A stretch of DNA of 64,000 nucleotides from a virus (lineage: Duplodnaviria; Caudoviricetes), in IMG/VR virus record IMGVR_UViG_3300048672_000970, positions 136,364 to 200,363 of that record. One strand, given 5' to 3'. Both the position numbers and the translations under genes were made by a program. The notes under the pieces were generated by a model that saw nothing but the letters and a program-made list of their open reading frames with translations, made no database searches and was not told the origin of the DNA. This document shows positions 26,564-43,076 of this stretch, in pieces. Within the stretch, counting starts at the first letter, position 1, and the number at the start of each line of letters is the position of its first letter.

Positions 26564-26609
26564 TCGACATGTAAATATGGGTTTCAAAGGCTGAAACCCA
26601 TAATGTCGA
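26564..26609 (+). promoter_or_regulatory. Late promoter (TAAATA 26572-26577) within a start-codon-sequestering hairpin
   Basis: tatgggtttca/tgaaacccata 11-bp stem plus tcgacat/atgtcga 7-bp outer stem containing ATG 26603. Confidence 0.75.
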
Positions 26610-29600
26610 ATAACACCTATATTCAAAGTCTGATTGACTACATTAATGATACCAAGCCCTTCAGGTCTAAACTATCTGAAGTGGTCGAAGAATATCATTT
26701 CACTGATGTGGTCAATGCGGCCATCACAGACAAACTTGTCCTGAAAGAAATATCTAGACCAGTATCAAAGTTCGACTATTATTCAAATGGTGTGCCTATC
26801 AGCATGCAATTACATCCTTTGAATTTGGTTGGTGATACTGGTTGGTTTTACGGCCCCGGACAAAATTCAGCCTATACTGTCGGGGTCAGTGAATCAACCG
26901 AACTGGCTAACATCCCTTTCCAATATGGCAAGAAACATTATACGTATTCGTCCGATGCGTCAATTTTTAGGCAGGGGACGTTAGCGGAAGAAGAACTGTT
27001 AGAAAATCATGATTTCCTGAACGTCAGAGGAAGCATGCAGTTTCAAATCAATCAGACGCACAATCCGGATGGGTCAGCAAACCCTCTTTATACGTTGACC
27101 GACGAAGTGAATTTGATTTCTGATGCAGCCAGTCAAAAAGCTGGTTGTATCAATTTTCTCATCGCTCTTTTTACCTATGTGCTCAATTACACACAGAACG
27201 TTTCGGTTTATTCAGCCGTCAATGCTGAACTGCATCTGCTTCTCATCGATTTAGATAACAACGTTTTGCCGACTGATTTTACCGCGTTGCAATATGCTTT
27301 CTCGTTAATTTCCGCACCTGATTTAGCTCTCATCCCCGATTTCACGTTGACTTGGTTTAACAGCCAGTTGCAAAAATCCAGCTCTGGATTATTCACGGGT
27401 ATGTATTCAAATGAAGCAGTCAAACATGCAGCTTCATACTCGTTCAATAACTATGCTGATTCAGTGATTGGTATCAGTTCAATTACTGTCCCAGCTAACA
27501 CTTTGTTAGAAGAATTTTCCCTTGTCGCTGTTTCACCCACTCAATTTCAAGTGTATGGTTCTGATTCAGGATTCCTCGGTTCATTTATAGCTGGGGCTTC
27601 TTTCACGTCCGCGAAAGTGTCATTCAATACCTCGATGGTCGGTAGTCCGACCATCGGTTATACGGTCAAATTGACGGCCAAGAATACCATCTCCATTCAC
27701 CCTGATGCCAATTTGGAAACGTGGAACATTGTCAAAATCAATCCTAAGAATTATACTCGTCCAGTGGTTGACTCGGATTCGTATGGCTATTTCACCTCTG
27801 CTAACGGAAAAAATACCATTCAGTTTTTAACTGAGACTATCAGCGGAATGATGATTTTTGAGGCGCAGTCTGCTTCCACCTTCAAAATTGAATGTGGTTC
27901 TTATCAATCAACCTTTTCTTGCAATACTCCTTTCAATGACGGTGTACTCAGTTTCACGTTCGTCAAGGGAAGTTATGATTACCAAGTAGGTGACAGGTTT
28001 TATATCGAAGTAGTCAATCCGGCTCCAGTCATTCGAGATTTCGGACTGTATTTTGGCTATGATGCATTTGGTTATGATGGCTTTGATGCCAATTCACCGG
28101 CTTGGCTCAAAAACTTGAACGTGACGAATGATTCACGATTTCCGGCCGTGTCATCAATAGATGTTAGTTTATCAGTTGTTCCAACCGCTCTATCAAAATC
28201 ATACCGGCTCGTTGCCTTACCTGACGAAACCAATCCGTATAACATCTTGCAAAAAGATGGGACGACTAATAACAAATTTGACATCACTTCCCCAGACCCT
28301 TCAATCAGTCAAGCTGTTTATGATGCAGTTGCTTTCCAAGTTAATTCACATGTCAGTTCCACCCATTCACCGGCCACTGGAACAGACATTACTTTATGGC
28401 ATGTCGCTCAATTCAGTGTGCAAGCGTTTGAAAATAATGGATGGGTTGAAAAGCAAATTGCCAATATCGGTGATACAGTTTCTATCGATGGTGTCACACT
28501 AACTATTCCCGCCAAACCCTACTTGGCGACGAAAGTTTTCTATTCACAATATTTGACCGATGATGTCAATTCATTATTCACTGAGACAGTTACTAATGGT
28601 GACATGTATTTTTTCACGGTGGACAATCAGCCAACATCCATTAAAGAATGGTACAAGAGTAGTGTCAATTTCCCTCATGTCATCATTCATGCTAAAAACA
28701 TGGGAGCAGCTATTGATGCGAAATGGACGATTACTAAGCAAAGTTCAGGATTCTTGCTCGCCGGCCTTTACACGTCTGGCAATAACGCCGGCTCACAAAT
28801 CTATGCGAAGAATTTAACCGAACTGAGTTATCAAGATTCTTATCTACATTTCACCATTGATGCCGGTAAAATTGGCATGCAAAATGGAGATAAGCTTGAG
28901 TTTGAAACGCATGCTTCACCTTTTGAGTATGCCGTTTATGGTAGTTATTCAGGATTTACCGGCTATGCCAAATTCAATGAATGGTTCTCTAACGGAAAAA
29001 TTGGATTCAAGTTAGTTCCGCCAACTATCAATCTATTCGAGAATAACACTTTGATAACCAATGGTATTTCAGCTGCTGGTCAAATTGGTGTTCAGGGAAA
29101 TAAAGTGGGGACGTATGTATTGAAAGGAATGGGGTCGAAATGGGCGCTATACCTTGGTACTCAGTTGCTGGGCATTGGTGTTAATTCCATTCAAACGACT
29201 GATATTTCAGTGACGATGCCCAATCCAACGATGGCAACCGTCATCATTCAAATTCTTTCCCCGTTTGATTTTCCTTTCGGGCACAACTCAAGTATTGTCA
29301 TTAACAAACTGCCGCAAACTGGTAATGTAGTCAATCTGAAAAAGACATCGTTTGATTATATGCAACTGGCATTTTCTGCGCCGATTACAGCCGTTACTCC
29401 ACTGATTCCTGAATCGATTGACCTTCGATTCATTGACCAAGTGCTTGTGTCAGATTTGACGAAGTATAACGTTACTAGCCCAGAATTATACTTGAACAGA
29501 AATTTCATTCCGCTAGATGTCAAACGACCCACTTATGCCAATAACCAAGTATCAACCGAAATTAACGCATTGACTGGAGAACGAATTGGTAATATCAACT

Positions 29601-30505
29601 CGAACGGGTTGTTTAGCTGGGATACTTCTTTCCACGATAGTTACCTGCCGGTCAATACGCAAATTTCTTTCCTGTACGGAAATACGGGGACGAATGAGAT
29701 GGTGAAAGTTAACATGACTGAACGCATTCATTTCTTTGTCGATGCAGGTAATTTGATTACTGATTCATTCAAAGAAGAAACTGTATCAGTCACGATGGTT
29801 GAATCGGTAGTGACGAAAGTTAAATCAACGTATGATGATGCTTTTTCGGGTATCGTCTTGGATGGTGATTTTAACGGATTCTTGCCCGGCTATTCAAATT
29901 TACCATACGATGCTGAACTATTGTCCGGTGTTGGTTATTATGACTATGGCTATGCCTTGTCAGAAAATTTCCAGAAGGCGAAAGAGCTGTTAGCAAAGCC
30001 GTCCTTGACTCAGGATGAAGAACAGCTTTTACGGGCGTTAGAAGGGGCTGTGGGCGCGTTTGTTAACGGGACGGTAGCTAACACCACCTTCGCCCAATTC
30101 GTCACCAATTTGGACATCATGCTGCCCGCCAGTCAAACGCCAAATTTCGGTATTCCGGCGTTAGGTGTTGCGATGGATTTGCAAGACAATCCGGCAGAAA
30201 CTTCGGCAACTGGTATCAATGAAGCGTTAGTGCTAGTTGATGGAACGGTGGGCATCATTTACTTGTCGAGTAAAAACGTGACTGGAAATCCATTAGGAAT
30301 AGCTTATGCGGCAATTGACAGTAACATCGTCATGCCGATAGGTGTTACGTCTGTAGAAATAAATTTCACTCAAGACATTGCTTCGCCAGTTTTTTACAAG
30401 TGTGAAGTGGGAGGGGTGGTTTCTATTTTGGTTGCGACACAGTTAAATTCACGTAAATACTCTTTGAGTGGTGTTGGCTCGAATTGTAAATTATTTGTGG
30501 GCTGA
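26603..30505 (+). CDS. Large virion structural protein (baseplate-like, 1300 aa)
   Basis: Late promoter; YINDTKPF N-terminal motif; GYDxxGYD motif; beta-rich. Confidence 0.8.
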   Translation: MSNNTYIQSLIDYINDTKPFRSKLSEVVEEYHFTDVVNAAITDKLVLKEISRPVSKFDYYSNGVPISMQLHPLNLVGDTGWFYGPGQNSAYTVGVSESTELANIPFQYGKKHYTYSSDASIFRQGTLAEEELLENHDFLNVRGSMQFQINQTHNPDGSANPLYTLTDEVNLISDAASQKAGCINFLIALFTYVLNYTQNVSVYSAVNAELHLLLIDLDNNVLPTDFTALQYAFSLISAPDLALIPDFTLTWFNSQLQKSSSGLFTGMYSNEAVKHAASYSFNNYADSVIGISSITVPANTLLEEFSLVAVSPTQFQVYGSDSGFLGSFIAGASFTSAKVSFNTSMVGSPTIGYTVKLTAKNTISIHPDANLETWNIVKINPKNYTRPVVDSDSYGYFTSANGKNTIQFLTETISGMMIFEAQSASTFKIECGSYQSTFSCNTPFNDGVLSFTFVKGSYDYQVGDRFYIEVVNPAPVIRDFGLYFGYDAFGYDGFDANSPAWLKNLNVTNDSRFPAVSSIDVSLSVVPTALSKSYRLVALPDETNPYNILQKDGTTNNKFDITSPDPSISQAVYDAVAFQVNSHVSSTHSPATGTDITLWHVAQFSVQAFENNGWVEKQIANIGDTVSIDGVTLTIPAKPYLATKVFYSQYLTDDVNSLFTETVTNGDMYFFTVDNQPTSIKEWYKSSVNFPHVIIHAKNMGAAIDAKWTITKQSSGFLLAGLYTSGNNAGSQIYAKNLTELSYQDSYLHFTIDAGKIGMQNGDKLEFETHASPFEYAVYGSYSGFTGYAKFNEWFSNGKIGFKLVPPTINLFENNTLITNGISAAGQIGVQGNKVGTYVLKGMGSKWALYLGTQLLGIGVNSIQTTDISVTMPNPTMATVIIQILSPFDFPFGHNSSIVINKLPQTGNVVNLKKTSFDYMQLAFSAPITAVTPLIPESIDLRFIDQVLVSDLTKYNVTSPELYLNRNFIPLDVKRPTYANNQVSTEINALTGERIGNINSNGLFSWDTSFHDSYLPVNTQISFLYGNTGTNEMVKVNMTERIHFFVDAGNLITDSFKEETVSVTMVESVVTKVKSTYDDAFSGIVLDGDFNGFLPGYSNLPYDAELLSGVGYYDYGYALSENFQKAKELLAKPSLTQDEEQLLRALEGAVGAFVNGTVANTTFAQFVTNLDIMLPASQTPNFGIPALGVAMDLQDNPAETSATGINEALVLVDGTVGIIYLSSKNVTGNPLGIAYAAIDSNIVMPIGVTSVEINFTQDIASPVFYKCEVGGVVSILVATQLNSRKYSLSGVGSNCKLFVG

Positions 30506-30941: not shown

Positions 30942-30974
30942 AAAAGGGTTGGGATGAAAGTCTCAACCCTTTTT
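30942..30974 (+). terminator. Intrinsic terminator
   Basis: aaaagggttgggat-gaaa-gtctcaaccctttttg. Confidence 0.85.
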
Positions 30975-30989
30975 GTTTTGTGAATCAAG

Positions 30990-30995
30990 TAAATA
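30990..30995 (+). promoter_or_regulatory. T4-type late promoter (TAAATA) heading the paralog array
   Basis: Directly after a terminator. Confidence 0.7.
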
Positions 30996-31019: not shown

Positions 31020-31547
31020 ATGCCCACTCCCTTACTGAAAAAATTAGCGCATCAATCCGGCCTGTCACTGAAAGAAGTGGAAGACAAATGGGCTGAAGCT
31101 AAACACACCATTCCGATGAATAAGTATTACTGGCCGGAAGTCGTTTCATTGACAAAAAAGTTGATTGGTCTGAAAGAGAGTATGGAAAATACCTCTTACG
31201 AAGAACTACTCGGATTTCTGTTATACGCCAGAAATGTTGCTCATATTCAGCATTGGAAGACGACCAGTTTTTCTGAACACATGGCACTAAATGATTTATA
31301 CGATTTGCTGTCAGAAATGACTGATTCACTGGCCGAGATGTATATGGGCGTTTATGAGCTTGGCAACATCCCCCAAGCCAGTGCAGATTTTGACACCAAG
31401 ACTCCTGTTGCATTTGTTACACAATTGATGGTTGACTTGAAAGAATTTAAGAGTAAACTACCGGATGATGGCTTCATCGTGAACAAGTTTGAAGAACTGC
31501 AGGGCGAGATTAGTCAAGTCCTTTACAAGCTGAAGAACCTGAAATGA
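31020..31547 (+). CDS. Ferritin/Dps-like four-helix protein (DUF5856-like) with an N-terminal helical leader ending LKES
   Basis: AHIQHWKTTSFSEHMALNDLYDLLSEMTDSLAEMYMG; start likely ATG 31020 given the late promoter position. Confidence 0.7.
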   Translation: MPTPLLKKLAHQSGLSLKEVEDKWAEAKHTIPMNKYYWPEVVSLTKKLIGLKESMENTSYEELLGFLLYARNVAHIQHWKTTSFSEHMALNDLYDLLSEMTDSLAEMYMGVYELGNIPQASADFDTKTPVAFVTQLMVDLKEFKSKLPDDGFIVNKFEELQGEISQVLYKLKNLK

Positions 31548-32233
31548 AACTGGTAAATTTATTTGAATCCTCTCAGAAGGTTATCTCATGCACCCTTGAT
31601 GGCGGGTCAATTGATTCCACAAGTATTGAAAATTTCTTTTCCGTCTGGCATCCGGAATTTGCTAGTAATACATCTTTTCCCCTAGTGTGCAATCAGCAAA
31701 AGGCGCCATCTATCTTGACCGGGCAAATTGCGTGCTTGATTGATACTTTGTGGTTTTGTAGCGGAAAATTAGTCAAATATTATCCACCTTCAGAATGTTC
31801 TTTCAAAGATATTGTGTATATTGAAATTGATGGCTTGGCTGAGGCACTTGATTATATGCGGGTTCATACTGCCATGAACTCGGATGCATTTACTATCAAC
31901 AGCGGTGCGCCACGCAGCCCCTTGCGCAATTTTGTCGTTGAGGGTATCAAAGAGGTGGGATATGTCGATCAGGAATATTTGGCAACTTTACTAGCCGCCG
32001 AAAAATACGTGAAAGAACATTTCAATGATTCTGATGCATATGATGCACTAGAAGATGGTTTCAGTCACGCTGTCAAACTGTTCCCATCCCTTCGAGAACA
32101 CGGCATGACCCCGCAGGAATTTTATGGCTCGGTCAGTGTTGGGGGCTGGCGGAAGAATTTTTTAGACCGTATCAAAACTTTCATTCCATATGCTATAACG
32201 ACCACCATTATTAACGACCAGTCACAGAAGTAA
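31544..32233 (+). CDS. Paralog array member 1 (tag MKLVNLFES)
   Basis: N-terminal tag; C-terminal NDSDAYDALED...FYGSVSVGGWRK. Confidence 0.8.
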   Translation: MKLVNLFESSQKVISCTLDGGSIDSTSIENFFSVWHPEFASNTSFPLVCNQQKAPSILTGQIACLIDTLWFCSGKLVKYYPPSECSFKDIVYIEIDGLAEALDYMRVHTAMNSDAFTINSGAPRSPLRNFVVEGIKEVGYVDQEYLATLLAAEKYVKEHFNDSDAYDALEDGFSHAVKLFPSLREHGMTPQEFYGSVSVGGWRKNFLDRIKTFIPYAITTTIINDQSQK

Positions 32234-32245
32234 AAGGAAATATAT

Positions 32246-32887
32246 ATGAAACTGGAATCTTTATTTGAATCGGCTGCATCTTCTATCGACTTGCTCGATT
32301 ACTGTTATCGGACAGAAGCAGGTACTCTTGCTTGGCTGGGTAAGGATGGAAATCCGGAAGGCGACATTGACACTTATAGTCAAGGGTACAGGTTCCTTGA
32401 TAGCAGTAATCCGATTACGGATATGTCAATGTGGGTGCATATTTTTTATAACAACCCGACAGAACGGATTGGCGGTCAAATAGTGAAGCTTTTTTCCGCA
32501 CCAACCGTAGGCAAAGGCATTCTGATTTTTGATGATTCTGCCAAAACCATTAAATCGGTTGAAATGGGTAGATTGGACTCACCGGCTAGCAAAGAGTATG
32601 ACGCAAAATGGAAAATCGCCAGGGCGGCGCCGCACTTGAATAACCCGCGTGATGCGAGTCATGTAAAAGAAATGGCTAATTTGCTCGAAGAAGATGATGA
32701 ATACCGTGACGCGATTGATGCATATTTTGTTGAAATGCTGCGCGTAGTTGAAGGGTTGGAACTACCGCGATTTGTCATGTATGGAAATAAAAGCGTGAGT
32801 GCTATCCGCAAAATATATGAACAGCGGAAGCTTGGTGATACTGTACCGTCGATGGTGGCGTACAACAAAGTAATGCAAGGGAAATGA
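32246..32887 (+). CDS. Paralog array member 2 (tag MKLESLFES)
   Basis: IDLLDY; LEEDDEYRDAIDAYF...LPRFVMYGNKSVSAIRK. Confidence 0.85.
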   Translation: MKLESLFESAASSIDLLDYCYRTEAGTLAWLGKDGNPEGDIDTYSQGYRFLDSSNPITDMSMWVHIFYNNPTERIGGQIVKLFSAPTVGKGILIFDDSAKTIKSVEMGRLDSPASKEYDAKWKIARAAPHLNNPRDASHVKEMANLLEEDDEYRDAIDAYFVEMLRVVEGLELPRFVMYGNKSVSAIRKIYEQRKLGDTVPSMVAYNKVMQGK

Positions 32888-32888
32888 T

Positions 32889-33542
32889 ATGAAACTGGAA
32901 TCTTTATTTGAATCGGTGGCAGTGGATTTGCTCGATTACCTTCTACCCGATGCGGACGGTCATGGTGGGTATGGATGTATTGTTTCAAAACTTTCAAATG
33001 TGGTTACTCGCGTCAAGCGGGGATGGTATTCTAATGGATGGCAATCTTACAATTATATGCAACCGAAACTATATGGCGAACCTTTTCTTGTCCCATCTTC
33101 TCAAGGAATTGCAGGTCAAATGGCATTACTGCTGGTTTTAGACTGCCATGCTGTTATAGACGTTGTTGATGAAAAACAGCATGAGCTGACGGTTATTAAA
33201 ACGGAAAAACTGGCAGATATTTTTGAAAAGATGCTAGCACGAGTTGAGGTGTTAGCACATGAATATATACAAACATCACCTTCCCAGCAATTTCCCGAAA
33301 GCACATTCAAACAAATCCTTGAAGATGATGAAGTATTCAACGATTTCATAGATGCGTTTTTTGCAGAAGCCACTAGACTGATTAATACTACCACACTTTC
33401 ATATGGGATGAAGTACGGGAAAAATACACCAGCTTCCACCAAGAAATTATTCAAAAAGTATTGCATTGAAACCCACACTGCGATCGCTTTTGCTGCCGCG
33501 AACCAATCTCAAGAAGTATCAGACGAGGATTACGAGGAATAA
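32889..33542 (+). CDS. Paralog array member 3 (tag MKLESLFES)
   Basis: VDLLDY; LEDDEVFNDFIDAFF...MKYGKNTPASTKK. Confidence 0.85.
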   Translation: MKLESLFESVAVDLLDYLLPDADGHGGYGCIVSKLSNVVTRVKRGWYSNGWQSYNYMQPKLYGEPFLVPSSQGIAGQMALLLVLDCHAVIDVVDEKQHELTVIKTEKLADIFEKMLARVEVLAHEYIQTSPSQQFPESTFKQILEDDEVFNDFIDAFFAEATRLINTTTLSYGMKYGKNTPASTKKLFKKYCIETHTAIAFAAANQSQEVSDEDYEE

Positions 33543-33543
33543 T

Positions 33544-34191
33544 ATGAAACTTAATACTATTTTAGAATCTTCAAGCAAGATTGACCTGCTTGATTATACA
33601 GACCGTAAATATGCTAACGGGCCGGTTAAATGGATAGACGCTTTGCGTCCTTTGCACGACCAAATTAGCCGGGACGTTACCAACGGATTATACGATGGAA
33701 TAGACGCAGTTCGTTCCATTGCGGGTGGGTTTATAGCATATAACCCAGACAGTTTATCAGTTGGTGGGTTTGTTGCGATTTTGTTCAGTTTCGGATTCCG
33801 GGACATCCAAGTATTTAACATGGGTGATAAAACCGCCACAGTACGAAACATGCCACATCTTGCGAAAACACTTTCGCATTTAGGTGAAGTAAGTCGTAAA
33901 ATCGGTGAAAATCATTCAGAATTAACAGACGAGAACGATACCACCCAATATAAAAAGATGGTAGAGTATCTGAAAAATGATGATGAGTATCAAGATGCGC
34001 TTGATGCGAGTTTCGCCGCCATCATGGATTTCGCCAGAAGTTTAGAACTACCACATTTCGTCATGTTTGGAAATAAATCGGTGGGGGCCATTAGAAAACT
34101 ATTTGACAGGTACGGGATTGAAGACCGGGCCAAACATCTGATTGGGAATAATAAATTTTACCAGCAGACTGTTGTTGAATGGGATAGCTGA
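33544..34191 (+). CDS. Paralog array member 4 (tag MKLNTILES)
   Basis: IDLLDY; LKNDDEYQDALDASF...LPHFVMFGNKSVGAIRK; true start ATG 33544. Confidence 0.85.
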   Translation: MKLNTILESSSKIDLLDYTDRKYANGPVKWIDALRPLHDQISRDVTNGLYDGIDAVRSIAGGFIAYNPDSLSVGGFVAILFSFGFRDIQVFNMGDKTATVRNMPHLAKTLSHLGEVSRKIGENHSELTDENDTTQYKKMVEYLKNDDEYQDALDASFAAIMDFARSLELPHFVMFGNKSVGAIRKLFDRYGIEDRAKHLIGNNKFYQQTVVEWDS

Positions 34192-34263
34192 GTTGAAGCA
34201 GCCCCTTCAAAAACCCGCTGAACAAATGGAAGCTTAATTTTGTAACAAAGTGTAAAAGGTTTC

Positions 34264-34292
34264 TTGACTGGCTTGCTACCAGTCGTTATACT
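34264..34292 (+). promoter_or_regulatory. sigma70 promoter TTGACT-17-TATACT
   Basis: Near-consensus -35 and -10 with a 17-nt spacer; the inverted repeat gactgg/ccagtc spans the spacer. Confidence 0.75.
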
Positions 34293-34322
34293 CTACCCAT
34301 ACCAATTTACTGAGAGAAAAAC

Positions 34323-34931
34323 ATGGCTGTTCATCTGTTTCGCACTTTCGCTGCTGACCTTGACAAAGAGACTGGTAATCCGTTCGGCGAGTTTCATAAT
34401 TTTGTCCGCGCGCAAACCGCCACACCCGAATATGATCACCGTAATATATACACGCTGTATCCCAGCGCGATGGTGGCCGAACCGTTGTATGGGCAAGTGT
34501 TCGCGCTCGTGAATGGATACGGTTCGCCGATTTTGCGCATTGGTACGTCATTTGAAGAAGCAACTCAGTTGTTTCCCGGACTGAGTGACGCTGTTAAGAA
34601 AGTGTGCGATCTGAAGTCTGCTCTCACAGCCCAACTGACGGTGGAACAAGAAAATGTACCCGAGTTCAAGGAATGGAAACACCTCAGTGCTTGGGATTAT
34701 AACGAGCCGCGCCCTGCTAATTTGATCACTATTGTCCAAGCCCATATGGCTGACGATGAGGAATACCTCGACACGATTGATGCATTTTGTACTGCCGCCA
34801 TTCGTCTCACACAGGTATCTGACGTGCTGACGTTCCAAGAATGGTTTGATAACGCATCTGTTGGTCAGGCGCGCAAAACTCTTGAAAAATATTTCATGGG
34901 TAAATTCTTCTTCAATTCGTGGGTGATTTAA
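34323..34931 (+). CDS. Paralog array member 5 (untagged)
   Basis: MADDEEYLDTIDAFC...EWFDNASVGQARK. Confidence 0.8.
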   Translation: MAVHLFRTFAADLDKETGNPFGEFHNFVRAQTATPEYDHRNIYTLYPSAMVAEPLYGQVFALVNGYGSPILRIGTSFEEATQLFPGLSDAVKKVCDLKSALTAQLTVEQENVPEFKEWKHLSAWDYNEPRPANLITIVQAHMADDEEYLDTIDAFCTAAIRLTQVSDVLTFQEWFDNASVGQARKTLEKYFMGKFFFNSWVI

Positions 34932-34933
34932 TC

Positions 34934-35518
34934 ATGCTCATCGAATTGTTTGAGCGCCTTGCTACCAATACGGCTTCAGCAGAAGATTGGGCAGCATTTG
35001 AAGTAGAGAAATGCCTAAGAGTTGTTTTTGATGCAGATAATCTATCGCAAGGGATTATTTTTTATTTCAACACTTCAAAACACTTCACGCATTCTGGGCA
35101 GGTGGTATTTTTCCCATTAGTATCACCACTAATAGCTGTTCACGATGCAGACGCAGGATTTGGAAACATGCCGAAATTTTCAGCCGGAGCTATTTCGGGC
35201 ATCATCCAATGCAGGGGAACGATGGATGAAATATGCAAGAACGAAATAGCTAAACTAGATAACCGAGATGAATCTACCCAACCTAACTATACCCGTCTCG
35301 CCAGTGAGTTAAAATCGTGTGAACAGTATGAAGAACTGGTTGAATCAATGTGCGCTAAAATCATTGCGTTTACCAGACAGCCACACGTTCCATTAACCCA
35401 TGATGAATGGTTTGGCGGCGCGAGTATTGCCCACATCCGCACTCTCCTTCATAAATTTCTTTTCAGTGAATACTACCTGAGAAATCGGGTACAAAAGTTC
35501 CACACCAAATCATTGTGA
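34934..35518 (+). CDS. Paralog array member 6 (short tag MLIELFE)
   Basis: LKSCEQYEELVESMC...EWFGGASIAHIRT. Confidence 0.8.
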   Translation: MLIELFERLATNTASAEDWAAFEVEKCLRVVFDADNLSQGIIFYFNTSKHFTHSGQVVFFPLVSPLIAVHDADAGFGNMPKFSAGAISGIIQCRGTMDEICKNEIAKLDNRDESTQPNYTRLASELKSCEQYEELVESMCAKIIAFTRQPHVPLTHDEWFGGASIAHIRTLLHKFLFSEYYLRNRVQKFHTKSL

Positions 35519-35549
35519 TACAATGAGCTTTCTTGTATCTTTTTGAAAG
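35516..35549 (+). promoter_or_regulatory. 34-bp repeated extended -10 promoter element, copy 1
   Basis: tgatacaatgagctttcttgtatctttttgaaag; 32/34 identical to 36200-36233. Confidence 0.7.
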
Positions 35550-35556
35550 AGGTAAT

Positions 35557-36186
35557 ATGCACCAACGTAAATTAAATTTACTTGATATGGTTAAACTACC
35601 CTCAACCCCTTTTATTAAGCCGCCGTGGTATGATTCGCTGAAAGCGGTGAGCGCGCGAATTGAAGCCGCGCTGCCACCCCCATTAAAATATGATGCATGG
35701 GTTGAGTGCAATTGGTTCATCCCAATCAACGATAGGGATGCATCTGTAACTGGATTTATAGTTTTATTTTTCCTTAACGTCTATCACCTCCCCGACGACC
35801 CGGCGACGAAGATCGCGGTGTATGACATGGATACTTTATCGCGTCGGGTCATCAAATTGACTCCATTAGAAGCAGCGATAAACGCTATACAATTATCTAC
35901 GCAGAAAATAGTAGATGATTGTATATCAGATGCGTCAAACTACAAAGAACGTGCTGAAGCCATTGAAAATGTAAAGAATGTTTTGCAAGAAAACGATGCA
36001 TATAATGATGCCATTGACACTTACTTTCGTGAAATACTTTATTTGTGTAGAGTTAATGACCTCCCGTATAACGTGATGTATGGAGATAAAAACATCGCGG
36101 ACGTTAGAAAAGCATTCTTTTTCCATATGTTTGAAACGTTCGCTGCAGATTTGGTTGATATTCATGGTCTTTACCAAGCAGCCTAA
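35557..36186 (+). CDS. Paralog array member 7 (untagged)
   Basis: GAGGT RBS before ATG 35557; LNLLDM; LQENDAYNDAIDTYF...LPYNVMYGDKNIADVRK. Confidence 0.85.
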   Translation: MHQRKLNLLDMVKLPSTPFIKPPWYDSLKAVSARIEAALPPPLKYDAWVECNWFIPINDRDASVTGFIVLFFLNVYHLPDDPATKIAVYDMDTLSRRVIKLTPLEAAINAIQLSTQKIVDDCISDASNYKERAEAIENVKNVLQENDAYNDAIDTYFREILYLCRVNDLPYNVMYGDKNIADVRKAFFFHMFETFAADLVDIHGLYQAA

Positions 36187-36199
36187 CGCGACCTTAACA

Positions 36200-36233
36200 T
36201 GATACAATGAGCTTTCTCGTAACTTTTTGAAAG
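36200..36233 (+). promoter_or_regulatory. 34-bp repeated extended -10 promoter element, copy 2
   Basis: tgatacaatgagctttctcgtaactttttgaaag upstream of the M16 peptidase. Confidence 0.7.
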
Positions 36234-36241
36234 GACTACAC

Positions 36242-37564
36242 ATGGCAACTCTATCCATTATTCATCCGCGCTACCATAACATCGAATACTCTGTTATGGA
36301 TTTGCCCGGAACAAACTTCTTCAAGTTTGAAATCCATTCTGAAATGGGTGCTCATATTGAACGGTCTTATCCAAAGACGTTACCGGAACATGAAACCAAG
36401 AACATTTATGGCATTTCTCATTTGATTGAGCATATGTCGTTCAAGAGTCCGGCTGATTACACGACCGACGGGCTGATGGCTAATCTGAAACGGTATGGCA
36501 CTTATAACGCCTGGACAAACTTTGAAGAAGTGGCTTATTACTTTGAAACACTCGCCGACCGAGAAAATGTCATGTGGGCGATTAGTATGGTGTTTAACAT
36601 CGCTTTCAATGATTTGAGCAAAGTTACTCAAGAAGAATTTGAAACTGAACGAAATGTCGTCTATAACGAAATCAAACGTTATCATGATGATGCCCAAACT
36701 ATGTTCAGTTTCAGGTTTTCACCTAATATCTATGGCAACAATGAATTTGACGACATTCTCGGCGACCCGGAAACCCTCATCAAATTCGACCTTGAAACTT
36801 TGCAAGAAGTGAAGCGCATCTTTATTAACGAAGCGCCGCTGACGATGACCATCACCTATGATTCTACACGTATGAATCTGGATGATATTTTCAGCATGAT
36901 TGACGCTGAACGGGAAAAACTGAACCCAATGCATCCGAAGCTGGAGTACACGTATGACATGTACCTAGAAGGCATCAAATCGGTCGAATGGGACTACCGG
37001 ATTAAGCAGGTGGCTTCAGATGCTTCCCAGCACCTTTACATGGCTGCTATCCGCGTTCCTGTGCCTGAGATGTCAGTTCTAGCCCGCGCATGCGCTTCTT
37101 ACATCGGACAATCTGCCCATAACGAAAGTTTGAACGAAATCATTCGTGAACAGCATGGCCTCACCTATGGCATTTCATTCAGTGTTGAAGAAATGACAAA
37201 TAAAGAACTGGCGATGGTTTTCTCATGCGATGTCGAACCTCAGAATGCTGATTTACTCGACACTCTGTTTGTTGATACTCTCCGGGCAGTAGTTGAAAAT
37301 CTGACTGAAGAAAAATTCAACAACTATAAAGAAACTTTGCTGCTGAAAGATACGATGGCTCTTTTGAACCAACGTGCGCTGATGAATCTACACAACTGGC
37401 CTAATAATTGCACTGATTTTGGCAAGTATGAAGAACTGTTCAAGGAAGATGGCATGAAGGGGCGGGAGAAGGTTTTTGCCGAAGTGTTGACTTATCCTAA
37501 ATTCCTGAGTTACTGCCAACGAGTAGTTGCGGGGATGGATAGTATGATTCGCATTCACACTTAA
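36242..37564 (+). CDS. M16 (insulinase/pitrilysin-like) zinc metallopeptidase
   Basis: Inverted zinc motif HLIEH, YNAWT, ETERNVVYNEI; C-terminal IREQHGLTYG; AAGGA RBS before ATG 36242. Confidence 0.9.
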   Translation: MATLSIIHPRYHNIEYSVMDLPGTNFFKFEIHSEMGAHIERSYPKTLPEHETKNIYGISHLIEHMSFKSPADYTTDGLMANLKRYGTYNAWTNFEEVAYYFETLADRENVMWAISMVFNIAFNDLSKVTQEEFETERNVVYNEIKRYHDDAQTMFSFRFSPNIYGNNEFDDILGDPETLIKFDLETLQEVKRIFINEAPLTMTITYDSTRMNLDDIFSMIDAEREKLNPMHPKLEYTYDMYLEGIKSVEWDYRIKQVASDASQHLYMAAIRVPVPEMSVLARACASYIGQSAHNESLNEIIREQHGLTYGISFSVEEMTNKELAMVFSCDVEPQNADLLDTLFVDTLRAVVENLTEEKFNNYKETLLLKDTMALLNQRALMNLHNWPNNCTDFGKYEELFKEDGMKGREKVFAEVLTYPKFLSYCQRVVAGMDSMIRIHT

Positions 37565-37565
37565 C

Positions 37566-37590
37566 AAAGGGGCTTCGGCCCTTTACTTTT
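37566..37590 (+). terminator. Intrinsic terminator (cUUCGg loop)
   Basis: aaagggg-cttcgg-ccctttacttttt. Confidence 0.75.
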
Positions 37591-37592
37591 TG

Positions 37593-37598
37593 TAAATA
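37593..37598 (+). promoter_or_regulatory. T4-type late promoter (TAAATA)
   Basis: After a terminator, upstream of ATG 37616. Confidence 0.7.
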
Positions 37599-37615
37599 CT
37601 GATTTGGACAAGTCT

Positions 37616-38860
37616 ATGAAACTATCACATTTATTTGAATCTACATCCGGGGGAACTGATTGGTCAGAATGCTGGAAAAATCCGACTGGAAATGATGTTT
37701 CATCGTTGATATCGAGCGAATTTGTATTATCAAAAGATGAAGGGTTCCTAGGTCTGCTGTTTGCGCATGTGCAAGATTTGGTGATTAAATTCGATTCGCA
37801 GCGAACCATCAACGGCTGGTCTACGGATACAGTATCACTGAATTCTATTTGCTATGATGGCTCGGATATGGGGCACTTTCTATTCACTCAAACGGAAACA
37901 CTTAAAGGGCTCTACCAACAAAATAAAGAAATTACGGATGAAGAATCGGCAGAAGATTTCCAAGACAAAGTGGAAGACTTTGCCGGCAAAATTATCAAGC
38001 ATCGAATTGAAATTGCCGCAAAGTTATTTGGTATGACGCAGAAACAGTTGTTCGGTAGTTTACCTTCCACCACGGGTGGTCTGTCAAGGAAACTGATGGA
38101 AATGTTCCTGATGCTCCGTGAGCATAAACAGGTGTTAGTTCATGAGTCAGATGAACTGAAAGTGTATAAAATCATGCCAGGACACGCTAAAATCGTAACA
38201 AATATCGTTGAAAAGAAATTTGGCGATAACGTATCTTTCTCTTGGTACGATTTCCGGTCAGAGTTTGGATTTGGCATCTGCATCAATCAGGGTGACGCTG
38301 TTCATACTTATGATTTGAGTAAATCTGAATACATCACTTACACTAAATTCTATACCGTACAGATAAATCACAAACCCAAAATCATGCGTGGTCAATATCA
38401 ATTCAAAACGGTGGCTGATTTGAAAAAGTTCGATAGTGTCCATTGTGAACATGTTGTTGACTTTGCCAAATCTATCAAATCCGATTTCAAGCTGACTGAA
38501 TTTGGTCATCCACGCGGACCAAGTGTATTTCTAGGTCTTGTACCGGACAGTGCCTTCAGCGACTATATCAAACGAATTAGTATTAAGATGGAATCTTACA
38601 CGCTTTCCAGACTTGAAGAACTTGAAGAAAGCCAAGGGTTCAAATTTGATGACATTAACAAAATTGCTGAGTTCTTCGCCGACCGATCACGTAAAACTAA
38701 ATTACTGACCGCCATCAAATCGGTCATCAAATCGGGTAATACTGGAATGTTTGAAAAGGGGCTGAAATCCTTTATGACAGAGCTTGCAGCAAAGCAAGGT
38801 TTTTCTGCGCATGACCTATCATCCGTCAACCACTATATCAATACGTGTTTCGGCTATTAA
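37616..38860 (+). CDS. Paralog array member 8 (tag MKLSHLFES) with an extra C-terminal domain
   Basis: AEDFQDKVEDF...MTQKQLFGSLP...SRK in the first half. Confidence 0.8.
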   Translation: MKLSHLFESTSGGTDWSECWKNPTGNDVSSLISSEFVLSKDEGFLGLLFAHVQDLVIKFDSQRTINGWSTDTVSLNSICYDGSDMGHFLFTQTETLKGLYQQNKEITDEESAEDFQDKVEDFAGKIIKHRIEIAAKLFGMTQKQLFGSLPSTTGGLSRKLMEMFLMLREHKQVLVHESDELKVYKIMPGHAKIVTNIVEKKFGDNVSFSWYDFRSEFGFGICINQGDAVHTYDLSKSEYITYTKFYTVQINHKPKIMRGQYQFKTVADLKKFDSVHCEHVVDFAKSIKSDFKLTEFGHPRGPSVFLGLVPDSAFSDYIKRISIKMESYTLSRLEELEESQGFKFDDINKIAEFFADRSRKTKLLTAIKSVIKSGNTGMFEKGLKSFMTELAAKQGFSAHDLSSVNHYINTCFGY

Positions 38861-38867
38861 GGAATAT

Positions 38868-39563
38868 ATGAAACTGACCAACATATTTGAATCTTCCACC
38901 CCTTCTGCAATCGATTTTATTGAAAAGTTCAATAGCGTCTACAAAGGGAAATCGGTACCAGGGCTGCATACCATGTTCTACGGACTATCTCATAATCCAT
39001 TACAGTGGGGGAATATGCGAATTGATAGATATACCATCCTGTACGATAGTTCATCCCGTGACCAACGACTTTCGCCAGTGCTTAAAGAGCATCTTCCATC
39101 GGGGCATCATATTATCACTGGACATCTGTATGGATTGTTTGAGGCGGTATGTTTCGGCAGCGCGCAGCTTAATAATGCTGCTGCATTCATCGATTTAAGT
39201 AAATCAAATCACATTACAGATATTCCACTTTCAAAATTACATAATGTCTTGTCGGCGCTAGCCCGCCAAATGATAGTCACCCTGGATGAAATGCGAAATG
39301 AAGGCATGCACCCGGATATGGATGATTTGCTTGCTGATGAAGAAGTGAGTGACTGCCTTGATGAAGTGATTGACGTATCAGAGCAAATCTGCCACAATGC
39401 CATTGTGAAACTTGGCATTCCGATGCAAGTAATGTTAGGTGAATACCGACCAATGCAAATTGGCAAATTAGTCAGAGATTATTTCAAATATTGCGGGATG
39501 ATTGATTTGGAAGAAGACGCTGATGCCGCCGATGATAGCGGCGAGTGGGAACCGGAGGATTAA
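38868..39563 (+). CDS. Paralog array member 9 (tag MKLTNIFES)
   Basis: AIDFIE; LLADEEVSDCLDEVI...IPMQVMLGEY; AAGGA RBS before ATG 38868. Confidence 0.8.
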   Translation: MKLTNIFESSTPSAIDFIEKFNSVYKGKSVPGLHTMFYGLSHNPLQWGNMRIDRYTILYDSSSRDQRLSPVLKEHLPSGHHIITGHLYGLFEAVCFGSAQLNNAAAFIDLSKSNHITDIPLSKLHNVLSALARQMIVTLDEMRNEGMHPDMDDLLADEEVSDCLDEVIDVSEQICHNAIVKLGIPMQVMLGEYRPMQIGKLVRDYFKYCGMIDLEEDADAADDSGEWEPED

Positions 39564-39959
39564 ATGAATGTGCATACCATTGCTGATAACTTACCTTGCA
39601 ATTTGATTGACATTGCCAATCAATGTAAAAGTTCGGCTGAGTTTTCGGCAGTGAATGAGCATTTCAATTTGTTATCATCTGGAGGCGACATTAAAGTCCT
39701 TCCAGATGATTTCAGATTCTCAGGTATTCTGGCTCTGATGTCTACTCGCAAATTTCAGAATAGTAACCCTTCGTTAAGTATCAGTCGGCAATTGGATAAA
39801 GATACTGAAGAAGCGGTTGATACATGGCGAGAAAATTTGACCGAGTATTTTATGCGAATGAAGCGGCTCGGGTTCACTCATACTCAGTTGTTCGGAAATC
39901 TGTCGGCAGTTGATTTCAAATACTGGCTGAAAAAACAACAAACGCGCAGCATGCCATAA
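39564..39959 (+). CDS. Paralog array member 10 (short, untagged)
   Basis: NLIDI; DKDTEEAVDTW...FTHTQLFGNLSAVDFK. Confidence 0.7.
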   Translation: MNVHTIADNLPCNLIDIANQCKSSAEFSAVNEHFNLLSSGGDIKVLPDDFRFSGILALMSTRKFQNSNPSLSISRQLDKDTEEAVDTWRENLTEYFMRMKRLGFTHTQLFGNLSAVDFKYWLKKQQTRSMP

Positions 39960-39981
39960 AAACTGATTTACTGGATACACA

Positions 39982-41001
39982 ATGAAACTTACTTCACTAT
40001 TTGAATCGGCAGGTAAAAATTGGGCGGATGCTCATCTTGAACCTGTATTGGCGGATGGCATCAAGCAAGGCGATAAAATAACTTTCGATACTGCCACCGA
40101 CACTGGTTTGATTTATCTGATTGTCAAGTCTTTTGGCGATTTTCAAGCTGTTTACATTGATGACGCCCTGCTGATGGACATTCCAGAGTATGAAAACTTC
40201 TTAACAGAACATAACGAGTTTGATGAATTCTTCACGTTCAGGCATTTCTCTGGTTCAGATGAGGATGATGAACTGATTGAAAATGCTGCTACCGATTTGC
40301 TCAAACTGGCGCGGCGATTGCAAGATGCTATAAACCTTCCACGAGGAAAATATTTTGGTAATTTAGCTCAAACTGTTGGCGCGATTGAGAAATTACTCCG
40401 GGCTGCAATCGTGCAGTATCAGAAAGGTGTCACACTGAAAGTGCAGCATGCCGAAGATGAAAAAATGCATGTTGAACTGTTCAAAGACGGCGACGGGCAG
40501 TTACGACCTAGACTGATGTCCCTCTGTGGATTCTCGGAGGAACAAGCATCAACGGCAGTTAGATTGCTTCGCACTAGATATTTCGTTTCAGCCCGGTCGT
40601 GCAACCTGCTAGTGATTAAGGAAAATATCCCTTACTTTATTATGCTGGGTGGAGTAGCAGCGACTATAGATGTTGTCAGATTGGATGCATCATCTGAGCA
40701 AACTACTTTTGAGTTCTCTGCGGAGAACTATCCCGGTCTTGATAAAATGTTCCCAGGTATCACCACTACTATCAAGAATCTGACTAAAAATGGAGAGTAC
40801 ATAAATAATTACCTGTATTTTGAACATACTACCTTTAATCATTTCCCGATGGTGTTCCTACATGGCGATGTTCTCTCCAGACTGATTATAAATCGTAGCA
40901 TTGATTTGGAAAAACTTAAAGTTGCCATTCCAAAAGCGTATACGCAGGGTGATAAAATCTTCCCGCTGCAAAGGGTGATAAAATCTTCCCGCTGCTGCTA
41001 A
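39982..41001 (+). CDS. Paralog array member 11 (tag MKLTSLFES) with an extra C-terminal domain
   Basis: DEDDELIENAA...LPRGKYFGNLAQTVGAIEK. Confidence 0.8.
   Translation: MKLTSLFESAGKNWADAHLEPVLADGIKQGDKITFDTATDTGLIYLIVKSFGDFQAVYIDDALLMDIPEYENFLTEHNEFDEFFTFRHFSGSDEDDELIENAATDLLKLARRLQDAINLPRGKYFGNLAQTVGAIEKLLRAAIVQYQKGVTLKVQHAEDEKMHVELFKDGDGQLRPRLMSLCGFSEEQASTAVRLLRTRYFVSARSCNLLVIKENIPYFIMLGGVAATIDVVRLDASSEQTTFEFSAENYPGLDKMFPGITTTIKNLTKNGEYINNYLYFEHTTFNHFPMVFLHGDVLSRLIINRSIDLEKLKVAIPKAYTQGDKIFPLQRVIKSSRCC
40946..40995 (+). repeat. 24-bp direct duplication (period 26) at a gene 3' end
   Basis: agggtgataaaatcttcccgctgc at 40946 and 40972. Confidence 0.95.
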
Positions 41002-41079: not shown

Positions 41080-41113
41080 AATGGAGGTTGATAAATACTT
41101 GTCAACCTCCATT
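41080..41113 (+). promoter_or_regulatory. 12-bp hairpin with a late promoter TAAATA (41092-41097) in its loop
   Basis: aatggaggttga / tcaacctccatt followed by ttttt. Confidence 0.75.
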
Positions 41114-41120
41114 TTTCCAT

Positions 41121-43076
41121 TTGGCTCGAAACGAACAAATCAAGCGCGCAGGTACTGAATGTGAATATACACCTGAGCAAGTGCAAGAGTTGCGCAAGTG
41201 TATTACAGACCCTATCTATTTCATTACCAACTATGTCAAGGTATCACACCCCACTAAAGGGCTAGTACCTTTCGCCCTATACGAATACCAAGAGCGACTG
41301 ATTAGGCATTTGCACTCAAGTAGATTCTCGATTCTAAATCTACCTAGACAACAAGGTAAAACAATCACATCAGCCATTTATCTATTCTGGAAGTCACAGT
41401 TTACCAGTAATGGCACATTTCTCATCGCATCAAAAAACGAATCTCACGCGAAAGAGATTGCAGCCAGAATTCGAGTCGCATATGAAAATTTACCAAATTG
41501 GCTGAAAGCGGGTGTCAAACTGTATAACATGCACATGATGGAATTTGACAATGGTTCAAAAATTATCTGTGAAGCAACTACCGATAAAACCGGGCGCGGG
41601 CTTGCTATCACTTGTGTAAGTGGTGATACTGAAATCACCACTCGGCCAAAAGACTGCCCAGAATATCTGCAAGCTGGAACTACCATTCAAATCTCGCAAC
41701 TGGCGTTAGGTAACTTTCCAGATACAGACCAGCTAAAAATTGACATAGCTGAATTAGAAATTCTAACACCATCTGGTTTTGAATCTTTTGATGGCATCGT
41801 CATCACGCCTGACAAGCCGTTACTTGAAATACAATTCAATGATGGGTCACATCTGAAATGCACCCCTAATCATTTACTTTTAGTTGATGGTGTATTCAAA
41901 TCGGCTGACCTGCTAACGCCCGAAGAAAATGTTAACGGATTATATGTAATCAGCATTACTCAACTACCTGGACTACATCCGGTCTACGATTTGATAAACG
42001 TTGCTGACCACCATACTTACAAAACAAATAACGTCTATAGCCATAATTGCATCTATCTTGATGAGCTTGCATTCATCAGTAAAACCATTCAGCAAGAGAT
42101 GTGGACTTCGTTACAACCGGCTATCTCGACTGGTGGGTCAATCATTATTTCTTCTACACCTAACGGAGATACCGACCTTTTCGCTAATCTGTGGCGTGGC
42201 GCTCCAGAAAATGATTTCATGCCATTTTCTACTCATTGGAGTGACCATCCAGATAGAGGGCCAGAGTATTATGATCTGATGCTCAAACAGCTCGGCCCGG
42301 TTAAAGTCCGTCAAGAAGTTGATTGCGAATTTCTATCATCAGACGCATTGCTTATCAATTCAATCGCACTCAATAACATCCGTTCAGTAAAACCTACTTT
42401 CACTTCGTTAGGGTTCGATTTCTGGATTCCTGACAATTCAGTGAAGGGTGAAGGGACGACTTACCTTATCACTCTCGACCCGTCTACCGGTTCATTACAA
42501 GATTCATCAGTTATTGAAGTATTTGAATTCCCTTCGTTGAATCAGGTGGCTGAACTACACCTAGATGATGTTAACATCCCTTTAATCTATTCTAAACTGA
42601 AATGGATTATCAAGTATTTTGCTGTCAATGGGGCAAATGTGTTATGGACGTTTGAACGTAATGGAATTGGCGAAGCAGTTGGCGCATTACATTTCAATGA
42701 CGAGAACTTTGAGTTCCCTGGCTCTGATAACGTCTCAATCGTCTCAGATTTGGACAAGATTGGTTTATTCACTACCCCGGCTAAAAAAATTACGTTCTGT
42801 TTGCAATTGAAACAGTTGGTCGAACAAATGAACGGATTGAACATCCGTTCAGATTATCTGTTGAAAGAACTGAAAAACTTTGTCGCTGCTGGTGGAACCT
42901 ATAAAGGAAAATCTGGATATCATGATGATGCCGTGATGGCAACTGTCCTGACGATGCGATTGCTAAAATATTTGGCAGAGTACGATGAAGCTGCATTCAA
43001 CCAAGTGAACACTTACATTGATGAGGAAGCAAGTATTGACGATTCGGATGCGTGCGTTCCATTCATGATTAGTTAA
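41121..43076 (+). CDS. 17: Terminase large subunit (T4 gp17-like) containing a mini-intein
   Basis: CITDPIYF, Walker A LPRQQGKT, YLDELAF, SSTPNG, nuclease D residues (LDPS, HDDAV). TTG 41121 gives MARNEQIKRAG; TTG 41088 is the alternative start. Confidence 0.95.
   Translation: MARNEQIKRAGTECEYTPEQVQELRKCITDPIYFITNYVKVSHPTKGLVPFALYEYQERLIRHLHSSRFSILNLPRQQGKTITSAIYLFWKSQFTSNGTFLIASKNESHAKEIAARIRVAYENLPNWLKAGVKLYNMHMMEFDNGSKIICEATTDKTGRGLAITCVSGDTEITTRPKDCPEYLQAGTTIQISQLALGNFPDTDQLKIDIAELEILTPSGFESFDGIVITPDKPLLEIQFNDGSHLKCTPNHLLLVDGVFKSADLLTPEENVNGLYVISITQLPGLHPVYDLINVADHHTYKTNNVYSHNCIYLDELAFISKTIQQEMWTSLQPAISTGGSIIISSTPNGDTDLFANLWRGAPENDFMPFSTHWSDHPDRGPEYYDLMLKQLGPVKVRQEVDCEFLSSDALLINSIALNNIRSVKPTFTSLGFDFWIPDNSVKGEGTTYLITLDPSTGSLQDSSVIEVFEFPSLNQVAELHLDDVNIPLIYSKLKWIIKYFAVNGANVLWTFERNGIGEAVGALHFNDENFEFPGSDNVSIVSDLDKIGLFTTPAKKITFCLQLKQLVEQMNGLNIRSDYLLKELKNFVAAGGTYKGKSGYHDDAVMATVLTMRLLKYLAEYDEAAFNQVNTYIDEEASIDDSDACVPFMIS
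41613..42047 (+). mobile_element. Mini-intein (145 aa, no homing endonuclease) in the terminase
   Basis: Starts CVSGDT, block B CTPNHLLLV, block F VYDLINV, ends SHN followed by extein C. Removal restores GRGLAIT-CIYLDE. Confidence 0.92.

Follow-up and report, generated by a model that had tools for sequence, protein, structure and literature searches.

Eleven tandem paralogs with N-terminal peptides resembling capsid-targeting sequences, located next to the terminase gene of an uncultured phage

What could a phage gain from eleven related genes in a row, most of which encode the same short peptide at the N-terminus and none of which belongs to a named protein family? This question is raised by positions 31544-41001 of a 64,000-nucleotide stretch of phage DNA (the window), which is the final 64 kb of the 200,363-bp IMG/VR record IMGVR_UViG_3300048672_000970. 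The completeness of this record was estimated by CheckV at 56%, and all record-wide counts and negative results given here refer to these 200 kb. The stretch is present in freshwater and aquatic metagenomes, and 99% of the region is covered by one freshwater run (X1). Because its large terminase (TerL) is 38-41% identical to those of RsoM2USA, PA5oct, and Xoo-sp13, which are jumbo phages, the DNA probably comes from a jumbo phage that is uncultured and has a terminase of the T4 type. We propose, with moderate confidence, that the N-terminal peptide MKLxxLFE is a short head-targeting and cleavage tag of the T4 type, and that the array would represent an expanded and rapidly turning over client family of head-targeted internal proteins that are cut after L-x-E.

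The region is filled by eleven open reading frames (ORFs; m01-m11) on a single strand and one gene for an M16 peptidase, as had been noted in an initial inspection of the letters (referred to here as the sequence-only reading). Of the starts listed in that inspection, the seven of the form MKL-x-x-[LI]-[FL]-E-S and the one reading MLIELFE (m06) are all present, with Shine-Dalgarno-like motifs upstream. The genes of the array are as follows.

31544..32233, + strand: m01; tag MKLVNLFES; distant member (E 4.7e-5 against a 14-member hidden Markov model, HMM), recruited by jackhmmer
32246..32887, + strand: m02; tag MKLESLFES; core member (BLAST 1.9e-27 to m04) with a folded AlphaFold2 (AF2) model
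32889..33542, + strand: m03; tag MKLESLFES; core member (BLAST and HMM); missing in one strain variant
33544..34191, + strand: m04; tag MKLNTILES; core member (BLAST and HMM)
34323..34931, + strand: m05; core member, subfamily B (BLAST and HMM); degenerate N-terminus MAVHLFRTF without Glu
34934..35518, + strand: m06; core member, subfamily B (BLAST and HMM); starts MLIELFER
35557..36186, + strand: m07; core member, untagged (HMM 3.5e-75); likely start MHQRKLNLLD
36242..37564, + strand: M16 zinc peptidase (PF00675, 51.7 bits; PF05193, 29.6 bits); conserved gene inside the array
37616..38860, + strand: m08; tag MKLSHLFES; module at residues ~112-164; C-terminal part of 250 amino acids (aa) without a match
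38868..39563, + strand: m09; tag MKLTNIFES; distant member (HMM E 0.016), recruited by jackhmmer from m02, m03, and m04
39564..39959, + strand: m10; short, untagged, module only; weakest member
39982..41001, + strand: m11; tag MKLTSLFES; module at residues ~92-141; C-terminal part of 200 aa without a match

Two of these starts are corrections. The most likely start of m07 is at 35557 (MHQRK), where the ATG is preceded by the ribosome-binding site AAGAGG (the database gene call has 209 aa), and that of the M16 gene is at 36242 (MATLS), likewise behind a good ribosome-binding site.

The eleven proteins are related to one another to different degrees. The core proteins m02-m07 are full-length paralogs (BLAST 1e-5 to 1e-27; HMM), and m01 and m09 were joined to them both by jackhmmer and by the HMM, whose 14 members take in those of a sister metagenome contig, L006 (with paralogs numbered from a01). 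When m08, m10, and m11 were searched singly, none of them was detected as a member of the family, and hhalign gave E values of 0.034, 0.052, and 0.0026, respectively, each time at the C-terminal module that the sequence-only reading had described. When m08, m10, m11, and a10 were aligned together without supervision and compared with the family profile, hhalign returned E 2.9e-5 (probability 74%) over 46 columns, which correspond exactly to this module, while the best of 30 random control sets reached E 0.052. The member count of eleven holds at the level of the module, with full-length support for eight members. It had also been claimed that the sequence between an N-terminal motif and the module is nearly unalignable. 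The proteins m08, m10, and m11 share the module only, but in the core six homology spans the whole protein. An I/V-D-L-L-D motif, which had been recognized as well, occurs in m02, m03, m04, and m07 and in a01 and a03 of L006. The same proteins constitute subfamily A, with LPxFVMYGNKS-type ends, while m05, m06, and a04-a09 constitute subfamily B, with LTxxEWFG-type ends, and a looser outer group takes in m01, m08, m10, m11, a02, and a10. The best L006 partner of m05 is a06, with 29% identity.

The AF2 model of m02, built from a 16-sequence alignment, has a mean predicted local distance difference test score (pLDDT) of 78.7 and a predicted template modelling score of 0.75. In this model, a small strand/helix unit (residues ~60-106) is followed by a helical bundle that contains the conserved module (residues 106-213), and the regions of low confidence are residues 1-10, which are the tag (pLDDT <50), and the variable region at residues 26-58. 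Searches with the model in PDB, BFVD, AFDB clusters, and the ESM Atlas, as well as VIA-wide, resulted in generic helical-bundle matches only (best Z 7.3). The model of m11, for which six sequences were aligned, was too poor to use (pLDDT 36.5; 56-62 for the module region alone). Pfam and PHROGs contained no family for any array member (Pfam thresholds of E up to 0.1 for m01-m09 and up to 0.01 for m10 and m11), and in the Pfam search none of m01-m11 matched phiKZ_IP (PF12699). For m08, no match was found in Pfam, PHROGs, or the Atlas, and Atlas look-ups with m02, m08, and m11 gave nothing usable. T4 internal proteins (IPs) were matched neither in sequence (Pfam and PHROGs) nor in fold (PDB, BFVD, AFDB, and Atlas). 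The earlier remark that the module belongs to no recognized family is thus consistent with these searches, and the array appears to represent a new protein family whose fold, confidently modelled for m02, has no match in the libraries searched.

The peptide at the start of these proteins is not restricted to this family. Searching the record for a strict form of the tag, M[KR][LIV]xx[LIVM][FLIM]E, gives 10 copies where 0.31 would be expected for 1149 candidate Met positions, and all 10 are located at ORF starts. Seven are in the array and three are outside it, on at least three unrelated types of protein in all. The tag ends in a site of the type cut by the T4 prohead protease gp21, [LI]-x-E followed by a small residue (S, T, or A): it is LFE-S in six members of the array and ILE-S in one, and IIE-S, LLE-T, and ILE-A elsewhere in the genome. 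This site is absent in m05, m07, and m10, which therefore carry no cleavable tag. The copies of the tag, including those on unrelated proteins, differ in their synonymous codons, and this suggests that selection acts on the peptide. In T4, the capsid targeting sequence (CTS), MKTYQEFIAE, is removed by one gp21 cut (PMC8442874; PMC7411985), and Alt is cut by gp21 at ITE-6, with the loss of six residues, and at LTE-619 (PMC5694885). Within the array proteins, the density of internal [LI]xE sites equals the genome average, which fits proteins that are cut once. The possibility that they are scaffold proteins degraded into small peptides was considered and rejected, since such internal sites are not enriched. 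The carriers of the strict tag outside the array are as follows.

Genome 98345-99196 and 99193-99999 (38.0 and 37.2 kb before the window): two adjacent kinase-like proteins, each behind a GTAAATA box and with an MKLxxhhE tag
P0015: tagged protein of 489 aa, behind a TAAATA box and followed directly by tail-fibre genes of the same strand

The two kinase-like proteins belong to phrog_4301 and contain the motifs G-x-G-S-S-R, VIK, D-x5-N-W-G, and IID-x-G. Their profile had no match among PDB sequences, so that the label "kinase-like" comes from the motifs only. Homologs in phage XacN1 and in an Alishewanella phage keep an N-terminal hh-x-E-A-P-L-P-D-D in which the Glu is invariant, and the homolog in XacN1, ORF170, is not mentioned among the virion proteins in the XacN1 paper. 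In addition, peptides that are closer to the T4 form are found elsewhere in the record, namely MAAFKQFLAE, MKLLQRFLAE, MSFKQFLFE, MGSFKNFLTE, and MGRFRAFLIE, the last of them on a GNAT acetyltransferase (Pfam, 27.5 bits); the genes starting with MAAFKQFLAE and MKLLQRFLAE and the GNAT gene are among those behind a TAAATA box. A small cluster adjoining the tail-fibre region (genome 117203-118971) consists of ORFs that are late-boxed or carry T4-CTS-like tags: MAKFKDFLAS (110 aa), MGRFRAFLIE (178 aa, the GNAT protein), and MSFKQFLFE (287 aa).

The elements that may bear on the expression of the array, together with the flanking genes, are as follows.

18344-26560: giant ORF of 2738 aa, behind a TAAATA box; no Pfam match
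26603-30505: giant ORF of 1300 aa, behind a TAAATA box, directly upstream of the array region; no Pfam or PHROG match
30942..30973, + strand: terminator-like hairpin (14-bp stem, then a T run) that closes the upstream unit; the same hairpin is found in L006
30990..30995, + strand: TAAATA box, putative T4-late-type promoter of the first unit; conserved ahead of the DUF5856 gene of L006
30996..31547, + strand: DUF5856/Dps-like protein (Pfam PF19174, 1.1e-16; phrog_858) that opens the first unit; conserved flank
34264..34292, + strand: match to a sigma-70-like promoter (TTGACT-17-TATACT, 10 of 12 positions; a consensus match only), in the sole sizeable gap of the array
37567..37584, + strand: terminator-like hairpin that closes the first unit; in L006, a10 has a matching hairpin and box ahead of it
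37593..37598, + strand: TAAATA box, putative late promoter of the second unit (m08-m11), 17 nt before the ATG of m08
41088..43076, + strand: T4-type TerL (Pfam Terminase_6N), downstream neighbour of the array

Late promoters had been proposed at 30990 and 37593, and both positions were found to hold TAAATA motifs, each just past a terminator hairpin. Because there are two such hairpins, each followed by a TAAATA box, the region can be read as two units, one from the DUF5856 gene through m01-m07 to the M16 gene and the other comprising m08-m11. Of the 72 TAAATA boxes in the genome, 48 are followed after 5-64 nt (mostly 17-27 nt) by an ATG that starts an ORF of 70 aa or more. Genes with such a box include the two giant genes (18344 and 26603), P0015, and the kinase-like pair, and the two units of the array have one each. 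The box appears to be the counterpart, in this phage, of the T4 late promoter. Among the genes behind a box, 14 of 50 start with an [LI]xE that ends at residues 7-13, compared with 5.4% of interior windows (P 2.5e-7). As an observation in its own right, about 50 gene starts, distributed over both strands, have TAAATA, often in the form GTAAATA, 17-27 nt ahead of them (in the window at 1947, 12871, 13559, 26572, 30990, 37593, 53957, and others). Furthermore, a 17-nt element, TGATACAATGAGCTTTC, occurs upstream of m07 (35510-35532) and of the M16 gene (36200-36226); it reads as an extended -10 element, TGnTAnAAT, and may provide these two genes with a host-type promoter of their own.

The distribution of the family is very narrow. 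None of 50,697 phage records was matched by the array in a megablast search, and a word-based search with m04 in 5.8 billion proteins returned only m04 itself. When 1.8 billion representative proteins were searched exhaustively with a profile, the matches were the members in the window, one repeat artefact, and five other proteins, of which the three that were looked up are encoded on L006 and the remaining two match ORFs read from L006. The external homologs are thus found only on this one 11.7-kb metagenome contig, and the family is present in two known genomes. L006 is syntenic with the window: a giant protein, a 131-aa protein, the DUF5856 protein, nine paralogs, the M16 peptidase, and a tagged protein of at least 355 aa follow one another in this order, with nine array copies before the M16 gene compared with seven in the window. 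Between the two genomes, the identity is 83% for the giant protein of 1300 aa (of which the L006 copy is partial), 69% for the 131-aa protein, 93% for DUF5856, and 80% for M16, whereas the best pairs of array proteins are only 23-37% identical.

A similar trend was observed among closer relatives. When short contigs of close strains from four further aquatic metagenomes were aligned to the region, the differences from the window were 0.4-0.8% in the DUF5856 gene and about 2.4% in the M16 gene, compared with 4-10% in m01, m06, m10, and m11, 0-5% in m03, and about 0.4-2% in m02 and m07. From these strain differences and from the identities of 23-37% for members and 69-93% for their flanks, we conclude that the array is evolving faster than its flanks. 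One strain contig (run X3), a single contig of low depth, joins 32886 to 33542, so that exactly m03 is removed, across a 10-nt sequence shared by both sides, ATATGAAACT, which is the beginning of the tag-coding sequence. In addition, m02 and m03 are identical over 30 nt around their starts. Because of this deletion and this shared sequence, whole genes of the array seem to be gained and lost by recombination in their tag-coding ends.

Relatives of this phage provide a context for peptides of this kind. In T4-like IMG/VR phages, which were reached via DUF5856, the DUF5856 gene adjoins TerL and ORFs that start with MKLKQLFEN, MKLLKQLLEN, MKVSELFEG, MITFKQYLAEG, or MISFKQFLEEA, and in one of them (L096) such tagged ORFs are located between the gene for the major head protein (phrog_138, 1.8e-84) and TerL. 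Furthermore, Peptidase_S77, the family of T4 gp21, is present in all five relatives tested, which are PA5oct, RsoM2USA, XacN1, and two of the IMG/VR phages found through DUF5856.

Taken in this way, the array would produce lineage-specific, fast-evolving small acidic proteins late in infection. The MKLxxLFE peptide would act like the T4 CTS by binding to the prohead core, so that the protein would be enclosed as the shell assembles, and a gp21-type (Peptidase_S77) prohead protease would cut after L-x-E. Once cut, the protein would begin at Ser9 and remain alongside the DNA within the head, and it might enter the next host by ejection. The same type of tag would mark unrelated late proteins, such as the two kinase-like proteins, the GNAT protein, and others, and the array would then be one client family of a general head-loading system, and its genes would be gained and lost via recombination at their 5' ends, where the tag is encoded and the sequence is conserved. 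In its rapid divergence the array is reminiscent of the polymorphic ip1 locus of T4 (PMC3012670), and the tagged enzymes are reminiscent of T4 Alt.

Several observations weigh against this interpretation. The tag or its Glu is missing in m05, m07, and m10 and in a01, a04, a06, a07, and a08 of L006. The array proteins are acidic (isoelectric points of 4.5-6.8), whereas the IPs of T4 are highly basic (PMC8442874). Late-type control is deduced from motifs, no RNA run being among those in which the region was found, and sigma-70-like elements are located ahead of m05, m07, and the M16 gene; together with the untagged members, these elements imply that part of the array may be expressed or handled differently. 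The phage is uncultured and known from sequence alone, and Peptidase_S77, Gp23, and the T4-type portal have no match in the 200-kb record. With regard to the last point, the major capsid and portal genes were not found in the 200 kb either, from which it seems that the head module belongs to the part of the genome that the record lacks. The sequence-only reading had described the tags as capsid-targeting-like, and this part of it is indirectly strengthened by the look-alikes of the T4 CTS, by the unrelated folds that carry the tag, and by the head modules and gp21-type proteases of the relatives, but not by the phage's own incomplete record, in which a protease of this type was not found. It had further been suggested that the proteins are co-injected effectors, with different specificity regions on a common scaffold, and could form an anti-defence or host-takeover arsenal. 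This is possible but found no direct support: the bodies have no recognizable fold or domain, and only seven of the eleven members carry the cleavable MKL-type tag. A structural role inside the head fits equally well.

The M16 gene requires separate attention. Its product exceeds the Pfam cut-offs of both domains (22.3 bits for PF00675 and 23 bits for PF05193), and the motifs HLIEH (HxxEH) and ERNVVYNE (ERxVVxxE) are intact and invariant in comparison with L006. M16 genes are rare in phages, being present in 6 of the 50,697 records. A search for relatives in viral contigs found nothing, and where relatives of 33-38% identity do occur, in other metagenome contigs, they are not accompanied by an array. 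M16 enzymes such as the mitochondrial processing peptidase remove N-terminal presequences. In Bacillus phage G, an M16-like gene, gp2 (NC_023719, 1980-3212), immediately follows TerL (gp1), which is a second case of an M16 gene near the packaging gene in a very large phage.

There are other ways in which these data might be explained. The proteins could act inside the infected cell rather than in the virion, in which case the N-terminal motif would be a helix intrinsic to the family, a feature of translation initiation, or a signal for degradation or regulation. This would be in keeping with subfamily B, which retains a hydrophobic h-LF motif without the Glu, as a structural or binding helix would, with the sigma-70-like elements, and with the lack of matches to head genes and a prohead protease in the 200-kb record. 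However, a family-intrinsic helix would hardly be expected on unrelated folds in different synonymous codons, which points to selection on the peptide itself, nor would such a signal be expected to be strongly enriched behind a late-type box or to occur on ORFs within the head modules of relatives. In the model of m02, moreover, the tag is of low confidence and is not packed on the body. We therefore regard an intracellular role of this kind as unlikely. The tag might instead be a docking peptide that is never cleaved and that plugs the proteins onto an external or tail-associated site of the virion, for which one could cite the position of tagged P0015 next to the tail-fibre genes and that of the array behind two giant genes that are possibly structural. 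Kinase-like proteins and a GNAT enzyme would make little sense on the surface of the particle, though, the array bodies are small acidic helical proteins without a binding-type fold, and the tag resembles the T4 CTS and ends in a gp21-type site, so that we consider docking to be improbable.

A related possibility is that the tags are removed, but by the embedded M16 peptidase and not by a gp21-type protease, in a separate maturation or sorting system of the phage. The gene has intact motifs, is kept at 80% identity in L006 within the array, belongs to a family that is rare in phages, has a counterpart next to TerL in phage G, and encodes a type of enzyme that is known to remove presequences. 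On the other hand, tagged kinase-like homologs are present in XacN1 and the Alishewanella phage, for neither of which the phage search returned an M16 gene, and Peptidase_S77 is present in XacN1. In addition, M16 relatives elsewhere occur without an adjoining array, and the acidic end of the tag is unlike the basic amphipathic presequences that are cut by processing peptidases. We find this still a little less probable than docking. Cleavage by a gp21-type protease after targeting to the prohead remains the interpretation that we prefer.

Two side observations concern the flanking genes. TerL aligns to its relatives in two pieces, which are separated by an insertion of about 150 residues extending from CVSGDTEI to VYSHN-C; a Pfam Intein_splicing match below threshold (21.5 bits) was also obtained, and the insertion is probably a mini-intein. 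The DUF5856 (Dps/ferritin-like) protein has a conserved N-terminal extension, MPxxLLKKLAxxxxxSxxxxExxW, here and in the T4-like IMG/VR phages (L094-L097), and in some relatives this extension is a separate ORF.

A far-reaching version of our proposal can also be formulated. In it, a general address system for loading the head would direct 20 or more late proteins into the capsid to be injected, among them the 11-member family, kinases, and an acetyltransferase. The conserved tag-coding DNA would serve in addition as a crossover site at which strains add, delete, or exchange whole gene cassettes, so that the injected arsenal would diversify itself, with the M16 peptidase as a possible dedicated accessory. 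In this full form we think it doubtful. If the tag is an address for head loading, the locus would illustrate how far the internal-protein principle of T4 can be expanded in giant phages, since dozens of late proteins would share the address, including host-modifying enzymes and a large orphan family that outpaces its flanks. The short tag could then serve for loading cargo into T4-type capsids, and the orphan family would be a candidate for functions in early host takeover or counter-defence.

How does the array compare with known systems? It shares with IPI, IPII, IPIII, and Alt of T4 a peptide at the extreme N-terminus that ends in [LI]-x-E before a small residue, the presence of this peptide on unrelated and rapidly diversifying bodies, and late-type boxes upstream. 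As in T4, where Alt is an example, enzymes are among the tagged proteins, the terminase is of the T4 type, and gp21-type proteases are found in the relatives. In contrast, there is no homology to the T4 IPs, and the tag has eight residues in the register L-x-x-L-F-E rather than F-I-A-E. Moreover, T4 has three to a few unrelated small proteins that are basic, whereas here eleven acidic tandem paralogs are built on one scaffold, and their packaging and cleavage are predicted from the genes. The other comparison is with the head protein families of phiKZ and SPN3US, whose members are presumed to be located inside the head or to be ejected and have been seen in virions by mass spectrometry, whereas the present array is known through its genes (PMC5694885). 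Family A of these phages corresponds to pfam12699 and includes gp53 and gp54, whose N-terminal 15 residues are identical and carry protease motifs, and family B has 20 members, mostly in tandem as gp138-154 (PMC5694885). The lineage described here differs in that its T4-type TerL is closest to those of PA5oct and RsoM2USA and is not phiKZ-like, in that no match to PF12699 was found for the array, and in its cleavage motif, which is L-x-E instead of A/S/G-x-E. Nevertheless, both are large tandem sets of paralogs in giant phages, with numbers that differ between related phages (PMC5694885), and in both the N-terminal peptides are conserved while the bodies have diverged. Therefore, while the array is not homologous to the T4 IPs or to the phiKZ/SPN3US head families, by analogy it probably works like those systems.

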